Notes under the pieces: model-generated | Databases searched by the model: none | Seen by the model: the letters and a program-made list of their open reading frames with translations, nothing else | Told to the model about the DNA's origin: nothing | Shown: positions 48,451 through 53,647 of the stretch, in pieces | Position numbering within the stretch: position 1 is the stretch's first letter | Layout: each line of letters opens with the position of its first letter | IMG/VR virus record: IMGVR_UViG_3300030508_000019 | DNA length: 64,000 nucleotides | Source: a virus | Direction: 5' to 3' (one strand) | Program-made: the position numbers and the translations under genes

Positions 48451-48531
48451 GGTGGTGTTGGTAACTCTGGGGATGTTACAGCAGTCTGTGAAACTGTCTT
48501 CTGGCGGGTTCGACCCCCGCACACCACCCCA
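48451..48531 (+). tRNA. tRNA-His (GUG) with encoded G-1
   Basis: G(-1)+GTGGTGT/ACACCAC with C73 and CCA. Anticodon stem GCAGT/ACTGT with loop CTGTGAA. T-arm GCGGG-TTCGACC-CCCGC. Confidence 0.75.
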
Positions 48532-48632
48532 AGATTAACACGGAGATATGGGGGCTTGCCCAGCGTGCGACGGAGACAATACGATTCGCTACTTCGTAGC
48601 TGAGTCTAATTGCGCACATCAAGCCCCCATCG

Positions 48633-48830
48633 TTGGGTATAATGGTAAGTGATGAAGAATTTATGGATGCTTTAAAGGGACTGAATATGAAGGTGCCCGA
48701 TATCGCAGAAAAATTTTCGGTGAGTAACAACACGATCGCGCGTTGGATGGTAGGAGAAAATCTACCGTACAACGCAGTACGAGAATCGATTTTAAAGAGT
48801 TTGGTGCCTACGGTGCAAAATGATAACTGA
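48633..48830 (+). CDS. small HTH DNA-binding protein
   Basis: A paralog of the next ORF. KFSVSNNTIARW is a helix-turn-helix. Confidence 0.45.
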   Translation: MGIMVSDEEFMDALKGLNMKVPDIAEKFSVSNNTIARWMVGENLPYNAVRESILKSLVPTVQNDN

Positions 48831-49008
48831 TGAAGAATTTATAGCCTGTATCCGAGCTTCAAAACTCACCATCAGTGAATTGGCTAACGCTGTGAGTGTT
48901 AGTCAGCCGACGATAAGGCGTTGGAGATCAGGTATGAACCTCCCGCATCAAGCAGTACGCGAGTCGATTTTAAAGTTTTTGAAAGCAGCTCTATCGGCAA
49001 TTGGATAG
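48820..49008 (+). CDS. small HTH DNA-binding protein (tandem paralog)
   Basis: ISELANAVSVSQPTIRRW…HQAVRESILKFL, similar to the preceding ORF. The 3' end overlaps the next tRNA. Confidence 0.4.
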   Translation: MITDEEFIACIRASKLTISELANAVSVSQPTIRRWRSGMNLPHQAVRESILKFLKAALSAIG

Positions 49009-49064
49009 TCATCCTCCCTCCGAAGGAGGTTTAAGTGTGGGTTCGAGTCCCACTGGAGCTACCA
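48987..49064 (+). tRNA. tRNA-Arg (CCG)
   Basis: Acceptor AGCTCTA/TGGAGCT-A-CCA. Anticodon stem CCTCC/GGAGG with loop CTCCGAA. T-arm GTGGG-TTCGAGT-CCCAC. D-arm has a 3-bp stem. Confidence 0.6.
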
Positions 49065-49116
49065 AGTTACGGGGAGAGATTGTAGACAAGCACAGGGTCA
49101 CCAGATTTTAGATTTC

Positions 49117-49192
49117 GCTCGTGTAGCTTAACTGGATAAAGCGCAGCCCTGCGAAGGCTGATTTTACGGTTCGAGTCCGTTCACGAGCACCA
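49117..49192 (+). tRNA. tRNA-Arg (GCG)
   Basis: GCTCGTG-TA-GCTT-AACTGGATA-AAGC-G-CAGCC-CTGCGAA-GGCTG-…-CACGAGC-A-CCA. Clean cloverleaf. Confidence 0.75.
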
Positions 49193-49197
49193 GATTT

Positions 49198-49274
49198 GGT
49201 TCCATCGGCAACTGGAGAGTCAACTGCGTTACGAACGCGGATCAGTGTAGGTTCGAATCCTACTGGGACTACCA
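49198..49274 (+). tRNA. tRNA-Arg (ACG)
   Basis: Acceptor GGTTCCA/TGGGACT-A-CCA. Anticodon stem CTGCG/CGCGG with loop TTACGAA. T-arm GTAGG-TTCGAAT-CCTAC. Confidence 0.6.
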
Positions 49275-49394
49275 AGTTTAACTACGAACTTTGTTTGACT
49301 TTCGTATTAAGTAGTGCTGTGCCAATTGTCATCGGAAAAGAACGGCGTCCCAACGCAATTGGTACTGGCTTGAATTTTTGGAAAAGTTTAACAC

Positions 49395-49471
49395 GCCTCC
49401 ATCGGCAACTGGATAGTCAACATCGCTTCGAACGATGATTAGTGTAAGATCGTACCTTACTGGGGGCACCA
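49395..49471 (+). tRNA. tRNA-Arg (UCG)
   Basis: Acceptor GCCTCCA/TGGGGGC-A-CCA. Anticodon stem CATCG/CGATG with loop CTTCGAA. T-loop ATCGTAC (atypical). Confidence 0.55.
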
Positions 49472-49476
49472 AGTTT

Positions 49477-49704
49477 ATGAAGATTAATTTTCGAGGACAA
49501 ATGGTCGAAGATAGGTCTGGTATAGACGAAGATAAACAGTATCGTTGTACCGATTGTGGGAAGGTGACATTTGGTAAAGATTTATCTTTAGTTTCTTACC
49601 AAACTTCAATGGAAGTAAGGGGAGAACTTGTTCCTACAGGAGAAATGGTAATTAACACTCGTCTGTGTCCCGAAGATAGAGGACATGTAGTAGAAGAGAT
49701 TTGA
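49477..49704 (+). CDS. small zinc-ribbon protein
   Basis: Start trimmed to lie after the tRNA. YRCTDCGK…C. Confidence 0.3.
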   Translation: MKINFRGQMVEDRSGIDEDKQYRCTDCGKVTFGKDLSLVSYQTSMEVRGELVPTGEMVINTRLCPEDRGHVVEEI

Positions 49705-49708
49705 TTTT

Positions 49709-49795
49709 TGTGGAGTAAACCGTAATTGGCAGCGGGCTGCACTGTTAATGCAGTGTCGTAAGACTCTGGGGGTTCGAGACCCTCCTCCACAGCCA
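49709..49795 (+). tRNA. tRNA-like gene, type II architecture with anticodon loop CUGUUAA (GUU)
   Basis: Acceptor TGTGGAG/CTCCACA-G-CCA. Anticodon stem CTGCA/TGCAG. Variable-arm hairpin GTC-GTAA-GAC. T-arm GGGGG-TTCGAGA-CCCTC. Confidence 0.45.
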
Positions 49796-49903
49796 AATTT
49801 TAGCGCTCCGGTAGAACAGGTGGGTCTTCAACTCCCTTAGCTAGTTCATCGGTAAACACTCTTCGGGGTTGAAGCCGGGAGTAGCAGCGCTAAAAATTTT
49901 TAT

Positions 49904-49992
49904 TGGGACGTAGGAAAACCGGCAACCCCACTGGGTTCTGACCCCAGCGACCAATTTGGTCACTGCATGTTCAAATCATGCCGTCCCAGCCA
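49904..49992 (+). tRNA. tRNA-like gene, type II architecture with anticodon loop UUCUGAC (CUG)
   Basis: Acceptor TGGGACG/CGTCCCA-G-CCA. Anticodon stem CTGGG/CCCAG. Variable hairpin GACCAA-T-TTGGTC. T-arm GCATG-TTCAAAT-CATGC. Confidence 0.45.
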
Positions 49993-50013
49993 AAAATGAT
50001 ATTTAACGATTAT

Positions 50014-50088
50014 TCCTGCGTAGCTCAGGGGCAGAGCGAACGGCTGTTAACCGTTTGGTCGGTGGTTCGAATCCATCCGCAGGAGCCA
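50014..50088 (+). tRNA. tRNA-Asn (GUU)
   Basis: TCCTGCG-TA-GCTC-AGGGGCA-GAGC-G-AACGG-CTGTTAA-CCGTT-…-GGTGG-TTCGAAT-CCATC-CGCAGGA-G-CCA. Confidence 0.85.
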
Positions 50089-50166
50089 AATTTGGGTCAG
50101 GAGGTCGGCGGTCTCGTACCCGATCTTCCCGTATACTGTACGCCTTCGGGCTACAGGCAGATGACG

Positions 50167-50200
50167 GGTGTAGCTCAGTAGTAGAGCACCTGATCTAATT
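50167..50200 (+). pseudogene. tRNA 5' fragment (acceptor plus D-arm only)
   Basis: GGGTGTAGCTCAGTAGTAGAGCAC, then no anticodon or T arm. A 10-bp inverted repeat follows (TTGAGCGAGT…ACTCGCTCAA). Confidence 0.3.
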
Positions 50201-50291
50201 TACTTTGAGCGAGTTACGTGGAAGGCAACTTTGTTCATGGAGGGCAACGACCAAAGCGACTCGCTCAATAAGTTTTGAAGTTTGAAGTCAT

Positions 50292-50363
50292 GATACACGT
50301 AGCTCAATTGGTAGAGCAGCGCCATTAACGGCGCTGATGTGGGTTCGATCCCCACCGTGAGGA
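50292..50363 (+). tRNA. tRNA-like gene with non-canonical anticodon loop (GCGCC-ATTAAC-GGCGC; 6- or 8-nt loop containing UUAA)
   Basis: D-arm GCTC-AATTGGTA-GAGC and T-arm GTGGG-TTCGATC-CCCAC are canonical. Acceptor pairing is poor. No CCA. Confidence 0.35.
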
Positions 50364-50443
50364 AGGCTTCTTGGGAGAAGATAGACACTTGATCAGTGGA
50401 CCGTTTCGTGAAATCCTTCAATCCCACCGGTTTTAGAAAGTTT

Positions 50444-50519
50444 GCGTTGGTAGCTCAATTGGCGGAGCACTCGACTCTTAATCGATAGGCTGTGGGATCG
50501 TTGCCCACCCAGCGCACCA
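50444..50519 (+). tRNA. tRNA (anticodon loop CUCUUAA, CUU-Lys by my fold)
   Basis: Acceptor GCGTTGG/CCAGCGC-A-CCA. D-arm GCTC-AATTGGCG-GAGC. T-loop ATCGTTG (atypical). Confidence 0.55.
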
Positions 50520-50694
50520 AGATTTAGGAATTGATTATAAGCCAGTAAGCGTGTATTATTATGATTGACCCAAATCATCTCTACACTTTGCATCAGACAT
50601 ACACAGGAACTGATTGTGCTTTGTGCGGGAAGCCAGCGACAGAGCATCCATTAGAGTATTGGATGATTAACGGTAAACAACAAGAATTAGTTAG

Positions 50695-50770
50695 AATTCA
50701 TATTGGGGAATGAGCTAGTAGGGTTATAGCGTTCCGCTGAAGACGGAAAGAATCCAGTTCAACTCTGGGA
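50695..50770 (+). tRNA. tRNA-Phe (GAA)
   Basis: Acceptor GGGGAAT/ATTCCCC-A-CCA. D-arm GCTA-GTAGGGTTA-TAGC. Anticodon stem TTCCG/CGGAA with loop CTGAAGA. Confidence 0.75.
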
Positions 50771-50877
50771 TTCCCCACCAAATTTAAAAAGGAGAAGTAA
50801 AATGAACTACATGAATTTAAAACAGGAGGTACAAAATATGCATACTCATTAAGATACTGCAAAGGAGCGGTAGAACT

Positions 50878-51693
50878 ATGCGCCCAGACATGGCCAAACT
50901 CCTCACTGAAGCTGAGAGGTACGGTTCAAAAAACCGATCTCAGAAGTGGGGTAAGCGGTTCAAATATAACCCTGATTCGGACTACGATGATCAACCATAT
51001 CGTGCTTCGATGTCCCGACATCGGCAAGATGACTGCGGGAAAAACCTTAGCGATGTACTCAACCCATTAAAGGGTTATCTCCACAAAAGCGTGGGACGCC
51101 ATTGGGATGATGTCTACAGTGAAATTTGTCAAAACCTTGATCGTCGTAGTGTAACTGGATTACATGTATTCACTCATCTTTGGCAATTCGTAGCCAAAAA
51201 TACTGTGATGTGCATTGACGGAAAGGTACGAGAATGGGCCGGTGGTGGCGGCTATTTGACTGAGCCCTATAATTATTATATCCACCCATATACCGGGATT
51301 TTGTGCGACAGTGGGTACAGCGGATGGCGCGAATGGCGGCGCAGCAATCGCACCAGGAAAGAAAAGCCCGTCACCGAGATTCGACTTTCGGACATCGGGC
51401 GTTACGAGAAGTTCGACGGCATCTGGTACTACTGCGAGAACTACGCTATCAAGCACGAGGGCAAGACGCTGATTCGTCCGGGCTATTTCCGGGTCAATGA
51501 CGCCATCAAGATCGATGGCGAAGTCAACGAGGAAGGCGAGCCCTTGGTTTTTTACTTAATCAAATGGACTGAGCACATCAGCACGAAACGCCAGCTTAAC
51601 CGGAAAGAACTGAAAAAAGCAGGATTGAAAAATGACCCTCCGAATCCTAAAGCTTTCAGCAGACGGGAACGAAAGGCTTTGGAGAGAAAGTAA
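50878..51693 (+). CDS. hypothetical protein
   Basis: 271-aa ORF. SD 'aaggagcggtagaactATG'. Confidence 0.4.
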   Translation: MRPDMAKLLTEAERYGSKNRSQKWGKRFKYNPDSDYDDQPYRASMSRHRQDDCGKNLSDVLNPLKGYLHKSVGRHWDDVYSEICQNLDRRSVTGLHVFTHLWQFVAKNTVMCIDGKVREWAGGGGYLTEPYNYYIHPYTGILCDSGYSGWREWRRSNRTRKEKPVTEIRLSDIGRYEKFDGIWYYCENYAIKHEGKTLIRPGYFRVNDAIKIDGEVNEEGEPLVFYLIKWTEHISTKRQLNRKELKKAGLKNDPPNPKAFSRRERKALERK

Positions 51694-51762
51694 GTATTAG
51701 GGGGTATGAGCAGAATGCAAAATGTTTTAGGCTTTTAGACTCCTTAGAAAGGAAGGTAAATT

Positions 51763-52308
51763 ATGGCAGACACTTTAATTCTTGACCAAAACTGGCAACC
51801 ACAGTCTTTTTGTAACTGGCAGAACGCTGTGAAATTGATATATGAAGGGCGTGCTCAAGTTATCAAAGAAGACGAGGGTGGGCGCATTTTACGGTCTCCT
51901 TCTCTGGAATGGAAGATGCCAAGGGTTATTGTTGTCAAAAACGCTTGGGTTCGTAGGAAGCGTTTGTCCGTTCCTTTCTCCAGACGCAACATCGCGGTTA
52001 GGGATAATAGCGGGTGTCAGTACTGCGGTAGGGTATTGAAGACTCAGGAATATACTCTTGACCACGTAATGCCTCGTTCTCAAGGTGGTGTATCTTCATG
52101 GACCAATTTGGTGCTCGCCTGTGTGCGCTGCAACAAGCGTAAGGCCGGTCAGACACCTAAGGAAGCTGGCATGCACTTACTTAAGCAGCCCGTGGAGCCG
52201 AAGAAGGACGATCCGAAGTACAACTTCAAGCTTCACATTAACAAGCTACGGCCAGAATGGAAAGAGTGGGAAACCTGGCTATATTGGAATGTGGAACTAG
52301 AAGCGTAG
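51763..52308 (+). CDS. HNH endonuclease
   Basis: CQYCGR…LDHVMPRSQGG…NLVLACVRCNKRK. Confidence 0.7.
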   Translation: MADTLILDQNWQPQSFCNWQNAVKLIYEGRAQVIKEDEGGRILRSPSLEWKMPRVIVVKNAWVRRKRLSVPFSRRNIAVRDNSGCQYCGRVLKTQEYTLDHVMPRSQGGVSSWTNLVLACVRCNKRKAGQTPKEAGMHLLKQPVEPKKDDPKYNFKLHINKLRPEWKEWETWLYWNVELEA

Positions 52309-52406
52309 AAGCTTTGACACGATCCTTTACGTGTCACATCTGGTCCCGGATGTGCTGACCCAGCTTAAAGGGTAGGGACTACCAATTTATGAACGGAAGT
52401 TGAGCC

Positions 52407-52483
52407 ATCCTCGTACCGGCCTCGTTTCCTAAACGAGTAACCGTAAAGGAGCAATGTGGGTTCGAGTCCCACCGAGGATACCA
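52407..52483 (+). tRNA. tRNA-like gene (candidate Arg-CCU; internal fold ambiguous)
   Basis: 77 nt. Perfect acceptor ATCCTCG/CGAGGAT-A-CCA. T-arm GTGGG-TTCGAGT-CCCAC. Helix CTCGT-TTCCTAA-ACGAG. Confidence 0.4.
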
Positions 52484-52769
52484 GGTTTTTATGTACATCA
52501 AATGCAGCATATTCGATGTGGATTTGGATCATGTATTTGATGAGCTGCTTTTGCAGTTGACAGAAATAACACTTCCTGATACACTGGAACTTGATGATCG
52601 AAAGATAGATAATCAAGAAGATTATAAACTACGAGAGTATTTATTGAAGGCTACAAAATAAGCATTGAAGGTCTTGCGAAAACCAAGCTGGCTAAATCAA
52701 TGCTGGATGTTGCATTCGGGAAATAAGAATTAAGAATTCTCGACGCCTTGGGATACATGGAGTCGTTAA

Positions 52770-52880
52770 ACGACTGCGGACAGTGTGTAAGTCTGGCGAA
52801 AGCCAGCAGCGCTGGTTGAAACAGTTAAGGGCGGCGTTAGCCGCCTAGAATCTCCCGCCTTTAGGCGTGGGAGTATCAAT
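52770..52880 (+). ncRNA. candidate structured RNA (three consecutive hairpins including a GNRA tetraloop)
   Basis: CTGGC-GAAA-GCCAG. GGCGGC-GTTA-GCCGCC. CTCCCGCC-TTTA-GGCGtGGGAG. Lies in a roughly 450-nt ORF-free stretch between tRNAs. Confidence 0.3.
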
Positions 52881-52963
52881 ATGATGGTAATTCTTAACAA
52901 CACGCTCACCACGCTTCACCTCAGACCTAAACGCTAAATTTCCGCGTTCAAAAATCTCTAAAT

Positions 52964-53038
52964 GCCTCTATCGTCCAACTGGAAGGGCACCGGCCTTCTA
53001 AGCCGTGGATCCGGGTTCAAGTCCTGGTGGAGGTACCA
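52964..53038 (+). tRNA. tRNA-Arg (UCU)
   Basis: Acceptor GCCTCTA/TGGAGGT-A-CCA. Anticodon stem CGGC/GCCG with loop CTTCTAA. T-arm CCGGG-TTCAAGT-CCTGG. Confidence 0.7.
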
Positions 53039-53048
53039 AAAATTTTAA

Positions 53049-53124
53049 TGCCCCCGTAGCTCAGTTGGTAGAGCCACCGCCTTTTAAGCGGAGGGTCGCT
53101 GGATCGTTCCCGGCCGGGGGTACC
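53049..53124 (+). tRNA. tRNA-Lys (UUU)
   Basis: Acceptor GCCCCCG/CGGGGGT-A-CCA. D-arm GCTC-AGTTGGTA-GAGC. Anticodon loop CTTTTAA. Confidence 0.7.
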
Positions 53125-53130
53125 AAACTT

Positions 53131-53207
53131 TGGGTGTATCGTCTAATGGCTAAGACCCCGATCTTTTAAATCGGCCGATTTCGGTTCGAGTCCGAATGCA
53201 CCCACCA
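53131..53207 (+). tRNA. tRNA-Lys (UUU), second copy with a different body
   Basis: Acceptor GGGTGTA/TGCACCC-A-CCA. D-arm GTCT-AATGGCTA-AGAC. Anticodon stem CCGAT/ATCGG with loop CTTTTAA. T-arm TTCGG-TTCGAGT-CCGAA. Confidence 0.7.
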
Positions 53208-53293
53208 AATATTCTACTTGACAAATTCCCTTAAAACCTCTTAAAGTAAAAATAGGTAACCGAAACCTCGTCAGACCAACCGGAGATGTTTTA

Positions 53294-53647
53294 ATGCCCA
53301 AATACGATTACTACAAGGTGCTCGAATCGCTCGAACAGGAATTGCGCGTACTTCCAGCCGAGGTTCAGGCGCTCGCTTACGAGTTCAAAGAATTGATTGT
53401 CAAACACTACGCGGCGCTGACTCCGCAGTACAAAAAGAAGTTATCAATCCGTTTTCCGTTCAAAGCGGGCAAGAGTCGCTTTGGTGGTGACAACATCAAC
53501 GTTAAGTACACCATCGAAGTATGTTCGAGAACCGAGCCCTGTCTCGATCAACCTCTTAAGATCCAGACTCTTAAGATTTATGTTAAGAGTCGCTTCGTTG
53601 AGAAGGATCAGTGGGAACCAATCAACTTGCCTTGGGATAAGGCGTGA
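53294..53647 (+). CDS. hypothetical protein
   Basis: 117-aa ORF. Confidence 0.35.
   Translation: MPKYDYYKVLESLEQELRVLPAEVQALAYEFKELIVKHYAALTPQYKKKLSIRFPFKAGKSRFGGDNINVKYTIEVCSRTEPCLDQPLKIQTLKIYVKSRFVEKDQWEPINLPWDKA

Follow-up and report, generated by a model that had tools for sequence, protein, structure and literature searches.

We analyzed a 64,000-nt stretch of viral DNA (IMG/VR record IMGVR_UViG_3300030508_000019; hereafter the window), which comes from a large phage that is uncultivated and carries a long array of tRNA genes. Two neighbouring tRNA genes in this array combine the asparagine and glutamine anticodons GUU and CUG with the long variable arm of class II tRNAs. tRNA genes were called by ARAGORN and by Infernal with the Rfam tRNA model (RF00005; gathering score of 29 bits). 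ARAGORN called 22 tRNA genes in the window, four of them in the region studied, and CCA was encoded in 20 of the 23 tRNA-like genes of the window. The two long genes, the spacer between them and the canonical gene that follows were located as below.

49709-49795, + strand: tRNA-Asn(GUU), 87 nt, with a long variable arm (ARAGORN; Rfam, 31.8 bits)
49796-49903, + strand: structured spacer between the two long tRNA genes, with a branched fold closed by a 10-bp stem
49904-49992, + strand: tRNA-Gln(CUG), 89 nt, with a long variable arm (ARAGORN; Rfam, 42.4 bits)
50014-50088, + strand: canonical class-I tRNA-Asn(GUU), 75 nt, with U1-A72, G73 and CCA (ARAGORN; Rfam, 65.7 bits)

An original prediction, made from the sequence of the window, had placed two genes with class II bodies and the anticodons GUU and CUG at these coordinates and a canonical type-I tRNA-Asn(GUU) at 50014, and all three were recovered by both programs. 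Neither program refolded the long genes into type-I geometry. The long arm was kept by both, and in the Infernal alignment it appeared as an insertion of 12-13 nt in the variable region of each gene. In the long tRNA-Asn, the variable region of 14 nt was drawn by ARAGORN as one nucleotide, a GUC-GUAA-GAC hairpin and three unpaired nucleotides. In the long tRNA-Gln, it has 17 nt and consists of one nucleotide, a GACCA-AUU-UGGUC hairpin and then ACU. In both genes, the acceptor stem is 7 bp and the T stem 5 bp long, the anticodon loop has 7 nt, and CCA is encoded. The acceptor and T arms had been described as perfect, which was right for the stem lengths in both genes, except that the T stem of the tRNA-Asn contains one G-U pair. 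U33, G18-G19 and a UUC T loop are present in both, and the CCA is followed in both by the same A/T-rich trailer as in the neighbouring tRNAs.

Homologues of the long-arm genes

Related loci (L010, L011 and L014) were fetched via a 271-aa anchor protein encoded downstream of the array, which shares 75%, 53% and 47% identity with that of the window, respectively. Each of the three loci carries an 88-89-nt tRNA-Gln(CUG). When these were aligned with the window copy, 23 pairs were standard in all four sequences, and six pairs showed changes on both sides (acceptor stem, two; variable stem, one; T stem, three). Controls in which the register was slid gave zero to one two-sided change. A fifth lineage of the long tRNA-Gln was found in L075, a 463-kb IMG/VR phage, with an identical D arm and different anticodon, variable and T stems. 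Searches with exact and degenerate patterns of the long tRNA-Gln gave no match in IMG/VR or GTDB genomes, and the sole match in JGI metagenomes was another copy of the same phage.

Homologues of the long tRNA-Asn were found in L010, L026, L027 and L014. The copy in L014/L015 follows the same plan as the window copy and shares little sequence with it. Across five divergent copies, compensatory changes were observed in the acceptor, anticodon, variable and T stems (the acceptor stem was checked by hand), while U1-A72, G73 and the CUGUUAA loop were invariant. The anticodons GUU and CUG were likewise invariant across the long Asn and the long Gln homologues, respectively.

A degenerate pattern was derived from the Asn forms of the window and L014, with the acceptor end left unspecified, and it matched two IMG/VR contigs and one contig of a Phycisphaerales metagenome-assembled genome (MAG). 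A looser pattern matched 52 IMG/VR loci, and ARAGORN called an 82-88-nt tRNA-Asn(GUU) in 44 of them, in which the three-base spacer between arm and T stem was imposed by the search pattern. BLAST with two IMG/VR members detected carriers among cultured phages, where the gene is annotated in GenBank as a plain tRNA-Asn. Acinetobacter phage Acibel004 (t08) has an 86-nt tRNA-Asn beside a 76-nt copy, Mesorhizobium phage Cp1R7A-A1 (Cp1R7A-A1_101) has an 88-nt tRNA-Asn, and the Aeromonas T4-like phage AhMtk13a has an 83-nt tRNA-Asn whose first pair is G1-C72. These genes were 73-79% identical to IMG/VR members and had no BLAST match to the window copy. The long tRNA-Asn family thus collected contained 41 distinct sequences, from IMG/VR phages, the three cultured phages and one Phycisphaerales chromosome. 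The original prediction had considered that the two long genes might be relics; the covariation of their stems, including the variable stem, and the dozens of homologues contradict this idea.

The Phycisphaerales MAG contig (JAQGHM010000081.1) is cellular. Its long tRNA-Asn (L027 1609-1694, - strand) lies directly after tuf, the gene of EF-Tu, and trpA and an ECF sigma factor gene are found on the same contig. The D arm of this tRNA is identical to that of phage L026 and 1 nt off that of the window copy. Beyond the gene lies AT-rich DNA, in which no open reading frame (ORF) matched a Pfam family, and the gene could serve the cell as its tRNA-Asn or mark a site of integration. These findings would fit an origin by host mimicry, in which the long tRNA-Asn is a cellular design of the host lineage, possibly Planctomycetota (Phycisphaerae), that was copied by the phage. 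Against this, phages of Acinetobacter, Mesorhizobium and Aeromonas carry long tRNA-Asn too, and the tRNA-Asn of these bacterial groups, as far as is known, belongs to class I. In addition, the tRNA-Gln genes of the MAG are ordinary (74 and 76 nt), and only one bacterial contig with a long tRNA-Asn was found. We regard host mimicry as rather unlikely; it explains the origin of the arm, not its function, and is compatible with the function that we favor below.

The spacer between the two long genes was 97% identical in L010, as conserved there as the tRNAs. Its fold had an energy of -34.1 kcal/mol (z = -2.69), none of 200 shuffled sequences folded as well, and it had no Rfam match at E <= 1.

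In both long tRNAs, three unpaired bases separate the arm from the T stem, as in the Tyr tRNAs of related and viral loci, whereas most Ser tRNAs of these phages have one. The three-base spacing was also present in long-arm Gln, Trp, Lys, Arg, Thr, Cys, Pro and Ile tRNAs, which had been found independently of the pattern. With this spacing, the arm should point away from the position that seryl-tRNA synthetase (SerRS) reads, and we infer that selection has acted against an arm orientation of the Ser type.

The frequency of such tRNAs was estimated in 80 IMG/VR loci that had been picked only for a canonical tRNA-Asn. About 15 of the 474 tRNAs other than Leu, Ser and Tyr had a length of 82 nt or more, including a few doubtful calls. 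Extra-arm class-I tRNAs are thus a minority but recurrent feature of phage arrays. Two other cases were noted. Mesorhizobium phage Cp1R7A-A1 (L079) has two 88-nt long-arm tRNA-Lys genes, with CUU and UUU (1074-1161 and 1395-1482), adjoining its 88-nt tRNA-Asn. A 92-96-nt tRNA-Ile(UAU) recurs in unrelated IMG/VR phages, with a long arm, a conserved loop about CAGAUUAG and, in some copies, a shortened D arm. It was located at the following positions.

L031, 1697-1792: tRNA-Ile(UAU)
L032, 6358-6449: tRNA-Ile(UAU)
L041, 7444-7538: tRNA-Ile(UAU)
L054, 4161-4252: tRNA-Ile(UAU)
L067, 12394-12488: tRNA-Ile(UAU)
L093, 4469-4560: tRNA-Ile(UAU)
L155, 4203-4294: tRNA-Ile(UAU)

Identity marks and the probable function of the long-arm tRNAs

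Because none of the search patterns specified the acceptor end, the first pair and the discriminator base served as an independent test of identity. The counts for the long-arm tRNAs and for other tRNAs were as follows.

Long Asn (n = 41): G73 in 36; U1-A72 in 32, and in 4 more once a one-base register shift in the ARAGORN drawing (8-bp acceptor stem) is taken into account
Short Asn of the same loci (n = 14): G73 in 13; U1-A72 in 10
Long Gln (n = 6 distinct sequences): G73 in 6; U1-A72 in 5, A1-U72 in 1
Tyr (n = 20): A73 in 20; G1-C72 in 17; U1-A72 in 1
Leu, long-arm (n = 26): A73 in 26; U1-A72 in 0
Ser, long-arm (n = 35): U1-A72 in 1

Asn identity is determined by the anticodon (G34 U35 U36) and G73, and the amidotransferase recognizes the tRNAs of both Asn and Gln by U1-A72 (PMC9976931). 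The long tRNA-Asn of the window carries G34 U35 U36, G73 and U1-A72, and in addition G2-C71. The long tRNA-Gln of the window carries all of the Gln identity marks, namely C34 U35 G36, A37, G73, U1-A72, G2-C71, G3-C70 and G10; variants in its relatives are G37 in L010, A1-U72 in L011 and C3-G70 in L014. Long-arm Lys(CUU), Trp(CCA), Arg(ACG) and Met(CAU) tRNAs of related loci have the discriminators A, G (with A1-U72), A and A, in each case the base expected for the amino acid. The discriminator base thus tracks the amino acid of the anticodon in long-arm Asn, Gln, Lys, Trp, Arg and Met tRNAs.

Since the first pair and the discriminator match Asn and Gln and not Tyr, Leu or Ser, and since the other long-arm tRNAs follow their anticodons, cognate charging with Asn and Gln is the best reading of the sequences. 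We consider it probable that the two long genes encode functional, cognately charged phage tRNA-Asn(GUU) and tRNA-Gln(CUG) that bear an accessory arm. Each of them would have acquired a short hairpin in the variable region or would have descended from a scaffold that already had one. The long tRNAs would be part of the array transcript and would mature by the same trimming as the other tRNAs. They would then be charged with Asn or Gln, either directly or via the route in which Asp or Glu is attached first and then amidated, which also reads U1-A72, and they would decode AAY and CAG. The extra arm should be no obstacle to the ribosome and EF-Tu, both of which also handle the long arms of Leu, Ser and Tyr tRNAs. 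The arm itself might alter how tRNA-binding enzymes other than the cognate synthetase, such as the tRNA-cutting defences of the host, see the molecule. This last step is a best guess and the weakest of the scheme, and we propose it because of the precedent of the tRNA-Tyr of phage T5 and of the RNA-repair genes encoded nearby.

Several points weigh against this scheme as a whole. The class IIb enzymes asparaginyl- and lysyl-tRNA synthetase approach the tRNA from the side of the variable loop, and a long arm could hinder them. In the window, the canonical tRNA-Asn is found next to the long one, which suggests that the two are not equivalent. The phage uses CAA more often than CAG (267 vs 130), so the tRNA-Gln(CUG) misses the commonest Gln codon. 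The comparison with L010 says little on selection because the whole tRNA segment, including the spacers, is about 98% identical between the two, while the flanking protein is only 75% identical. Moreover, serine identity, too, rests at its core on G73 combined with a long arm (PMC5389517, PMC7609411), and both long tRNAs share G2-C71 in addition.

The last point bears on mis-acylation, which had been raised in the original prediction. As substrates of SerRS or, in the case of the GUU tRNA with its Tyr-like arm, of tyrosyl-tRNA synthetase, the long tRNAs would insert Ser or Tyr at Asn and Gln codons, in the manner of the nev-tRNAs of nematodes and of the allo-tRNAs of Acidobacteria. SerRS recognizes its tRNAs by the long arm and G73, irrespective of the anticodon (PMC5389517, PMC7609411), and little beyond a change of A73 to G73 is needed to switch a tRNA from Leu to Ser (PMC9976931). 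The coexistence of a canonical tRNA-Asn would also fit this idea. However, U1-A72 is the first pair of most long Asn (32 of 41) and long Gln (5 of 6) sequences, compared with only 1 of 35 Ser tRNAs. The discriminator follows the anticodon across six identities, whereas the parental A73 is kept in 115 of 115 nev-tRNAs (PMC3333845). Three unpaired bases precede the T stem instead of the one seen in most Ser tRNAs, and the variable stem of the tRNA-Asn has only 3 bp. As for Tyr, its identity lies in A73 and GUA, whereas the long tRNA-Asn has G73 and U at base 36. These features, and above all the first pair and discriminator of Asn and Gln type, make mis-acylation unlikely.

The long genes could also be look-alikes that do not act in translation, either as decoys for anticodon nucleases and other tRNA-binding defences of the host or as dedicated substrates of phage enzymes. 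Phage tRNAs counter tRNA-cutting defences, and a distinctive variable loop protects the T5 tRNA-Tyr (PMC13096335). The array contains many tRNAs of the kinds that nucleases typically target (Lys, Arg, Ser, Asn, His and Gln) and lies near RNA-repair genes, and long and canonical tRNA-Asn are kept side by side both in the window and in Acibel004. A decoy, however, would not need the acceptor stem, discriminator, CCA, U1-A72, G18-G19 and UUC T loop to be kept across divergent sequences. Furthermore, in the DNA examined, the long form was the sole tRNA-Gln of L011 and L014 and the sole tRNA-Asn of the Aeromonas phage locus. We therefore think it improbable that the long genes are decoys and continue to favor functional tRNAs charged according to their anticodons.

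A broader proposal can be made, which we hold only tentatively and judge rather unlikely. Phages, especially large ones, may maintain an undescribed class of extra-arm class-I tRNAs, with Asn as the commonest identity and with further versions for Gln, Lys, Thr, Ile, Met, Arg, Trp, Pro and Cys, in which the arm would be a functional tag. Such a tag might hide the tRNA from the tRNA-cutting defences of the host or from a phage-made nuclease that destroys host tRNAs, or it might redirect the tRNA to another synthetase for deliberate mistranslation of Asn and Gln codons.

A degenerate tRNA-like gene and the surroundings of the array

Downstream of the canonical tRNA-Asn, a degenerate gene is preceded by a tRNA fragment and a hairpin.

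50090-50203, + strand: 114-nt stretch missing from L010 in the pairwise alignment, with no match in other loci
about 50164-50203, + strand: truncated tRNA 5' fragment with the acceptor strand, the complete D arm and one strand of the anticodon stem, forming the 3' part of the above stretch
50204-50292, + strand: hairpin at 50205-50268 with an 11-bp stem, and an A/T-rich tail (fold z = -1.08)
50293-50363, + strand: degenerate tRNA-like gene, called 'tRNA-?(Stop|Leu)(ta)' by ARAGORN (Rfam, 44.5 bits)

The D and T arms of the degenerate gene are intact, and its anticodon arm is GCGCC-ATTAAC-GGCGC, as originally described; its start had been placed at 50292, one base off, and the loop, given before as 6 or 8 nt, has 6 nt (AUUAAC) according to ARAGORN and is one base short according to Infernal. 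If the closing pair is opened and the loop is read as 8 nt, position 33 is A and the canonical U33 is lost. The acceptor stem contains the mismatches A1.G72 and A3.A70 and a U2.G71 wobble, and CCA is absent. The copy in L010 has four differences, all outside the stems, and its loop reads ATTTAC instead of ATTAAC. Besides this copy, no homologue was found by BLAST (E <= 1e-4) in the other fetched loci, including L011 and L014.

This gene had been likened to an ochre or frameshift suppressor, and readthrough of an in-frame TAA at 44894 had been suggested as its test case. The loop does hold UUA/UAA, and the distant relatives L022 and L023 carry a genuine 76-nt tRNA(UUA) and a tRNA(CUA). On the other hand, the features of an ochre suppressor, a 7-nt loop with U33 and a UUA anticodon and a chargeable acceptor stem, are absent, and the loop base itself is not stable between the window and L010. 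All eight near-identical contigs (L001-L008) have GAA where the window has the TAA at 44894, and each of them carries an identical copy of the degenerate gene. The affected vault-like gene is uninterrupted over 817 codons in these contigs and is cut only in the window, by a G-to-T change that creates the TAA. TAA is also the commonest stop codon, ending 18 of the 28 ORFs counted. A suppressor that reads through this codon is thus very improbable, and a suppressor tRNA tied to the in-frame stop can be set aside. We concluded that 50293-50363 is a decayed tRNA copy, not a suppressor. Its match to the CUA and UUA suppressors that distant relatives carry is confined to the common 22-nt D arm; a suppressor ancestry is possible.

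The vault-like gene (43016-45496, + strand) resembles the eukaryotic major vault protein and has Vault_3 and MVP shoulder domains. In the more distant relatives (L022, 12717-12792 and 13233-13308; L023; L016, 7689-7763; L017, 12834-13060), intact tRNA(UUA) and tRNA(CUA) genes were found, some of which have U1-A72 and G73 and are Gln-like, together with a permuted tmRNA and a fragment of release factor 1. These features hint at a recoding of stop codons in the branch of L022, L023, L016 and L017.

The 5' half and the intron-like hairpin of the original prediction both exist, as parts of neither an intron nor a split gene. The segment 50204-50292 was 99% identical in L010, which lacks the 5' fragment; since L010 keeps the hairpin and the degenerate gene without the fragment, they are not one split gene. 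An intron-bearing or split tRNA across 50164-50363 was also rejected on the grounds that the halves are not complementary and that no intron family was found in Rfam. On direct reading, no 3' partner of the fragment was found nearby, and downstream of the degenerate gene there was only a 4-bp match. In Rfam searches of 48000-53500 (E <= 1), the spacers, the hairpin and the 5' fragment were all without a match, and no intron family, including group I, was detected. None of the hairpin, the 5' segment and the stretch after the tRNA had an unusual folding energy. Archaeal-type bulge-helix-bulge introns in the variable region were considered and rejected, as the context is bacterial and no such motif is present, and so was Thg1-like 5' editing of the mismatched acceptor end, for which no supporting gene was found. 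The decayed copy and the 5' fragment resemble the debris of recombination in nuclease-rich tRNA arrays, which is to be expected where homing nucleases reshape such arrays (PMC13096335).

Further unusual tRNAs were observed in the array. A tRNA-Arg(CCU) has a 7-nt connector in place of the D arm. This form is conserved in L014 (7866-7950) and L020 (1806-1891) with a variable region of 18-20 nt, and two compensatory changes separate the window copy from that of L014 (A1-U72 to G1-C72 and U31-A39 to C31-G39); L010 has a normal 77-nt tRNA-Arg(CCU) at the same place. In the tRNAs at 49395-49471, 50444-50519 and 53050-53125, and also in L011, L014 and L026, the T loop is AUCGUNN with A54 and U58. 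This is a coordinated swap of the usual U54-A58 reverse-Hoogsteen pair, and this phage group shows it repeatedly, in tRNAs for Arg, Lys, His and Gln.

All genes of the window are on the + strand, and they include those for an NAD-dependent DNA ligase, an OmpA-domain protein, the vault-protein-like protein, an amino-acid permease, an ADP-ribosylglycohydrolase and HNH nucleases. The genes near the array and the D-armless tRNA are listed below.

41589-42313, + strand: PNKP phosphatase-domain fragment, an RNA-repair gene a few kb upstream of the tRNA array
45773-46606, + strand: RlaP nucleotidyltransferase, associated with RNA repair, a few kb upstream of the tRNA array
46685-47014, + strand, and 51763-52308, + strand: two HNH nuclease genes, beside and inside the tRNA array
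52407-52483, + strand: tRNA-Arg(CCU) without D arm, with an 18-nt variable region, an intact acceptor stem and an encoded CCA (Rfam only, 36.6 bits)

The sequence of the window was found in many peat and bog metagenomes, and the eight contigs L001-L008 were 100% identical to it over 49400-50800. No close relative was found among cultured phages: in 50,697 phage records, megablast detected no match to the tRNA region, and in a distant blastn search of the region the sole match was that of the canonical tRNA-Asn to tRNA-Asn genes of many cultured phages. When relatives of flanking proteins were searched for in IMG/VR, one search gave one weak match and the other gave none. Promoter and terminator scans showed no enrichment over shuffled sequences; one near-consensus site (48017-48045) lies upstream of the array. 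The Trp operon leader model of Rfam weakly matched 48243-48345 on the + strand (26.2 bits vs a threshold of 41; E = 0.04). This stretch is directly upstream of the phage tRNA-Trp and ends in a terminator-like hairpin (48318-48339), and the match is probably due to chance.

Comparison with known long-arm tRNAs

In textbooks, the long variable arm is restricted to Leu, Ser, bacterial Tyr and Sec tRNAs. The long genes of the window resemble bacterial class II tRNAs (Tyr, Leu and Ser) in having a long variable-arm hairpin on a 7/5 cloverleaf. The layout of one base, a stem-loop and three unpaired bases is that of the Tyr tRNAs of the related phages L022 and L025, and the arm is closed by GNRA-type loops, which the Ser tRNAs of the phage itself also have. 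They differ from bacterial class II tRNAs in their anticodons GUU and CUG, in G73 instead of the A73 of Tyr and Leu, in U1-A72 instead of G1-C72, and in the three-base 3' spacer, unlike most Ser tRNAs.

The T5 tRNA-Tyr, which acts against retron-Eco7/Septu, is also a phage tRNA whose altered variable region was reported to resist a host nuclease, and there, too, homing nucleases reshape the array (PMC13096335). In that case, an existing class II arm is altered and the effect has experimental support, whereas here the arm sits on class-I identities and the link to defence is a hypothesis. If charging is correct as we propose, the Asn and Gln synthetases and the amidotransferase route would tolerate the class II shape, which would be useful for the design of orthogonal tRNAs, and phages would keep the arm for some reason, plausibly a conflict over tRNA-targeting immunity. 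The question is open to bench testing now because three cultured phage-host pairs carry such genes.

Our search of full-text literature found no paper that describes Asn or Gln tRNAs with a long arm from phages or bacteria. The closest counterparts are the tRNA-Asn genes of Acibel004, Cp1R7A-A1 and AhMtk13a, which share a length of 83-88 nt, GUU, the variable-arm hairpin, G73 and CCA, with a canonical copy also present in Acibel004. The same kind of gene is therefore already in GenBank as a plain tRNA-Asn, and the defining features of allo-tRNAs and nev-tRNAs are absent from the long tRNAs of the window. The nev-tRNAs of nematodes (Hamashima et al. 2012, PMC3333845) likewise combine a class II shape with anticodons of class-I amino acids (Gly and Ile). 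They are, however, eukaryotic nuclear tRNAs, all 115 of which keep the Leu A73 and which were leucylated in vitro (PMC3333845), whereas in the phage genes the discriminator and first pair follow the anticodon. The allo-tRNAs and irregular tRNA polycistrons of Acidobacteria and phages (Mukai et al. 2017, PMC5389517) share the long arm, the non-Ser anticodons and the occurrence in soil and peat metagenomes and phage tRNA clusters. They differ in an 8/4 or 9/3 branch, a D arm like that of tRNA-Sec and mostly Ser identity, as against the 7/5 form with Asn and Gln marks seen here. These known exceptions to the class II rule are oddities of mis-charging or suppression. In the phage genes, the arm is carried by cognate-looking tRNAs, covaries, and is found in dozens of phages and at least one bacterial chromosome.

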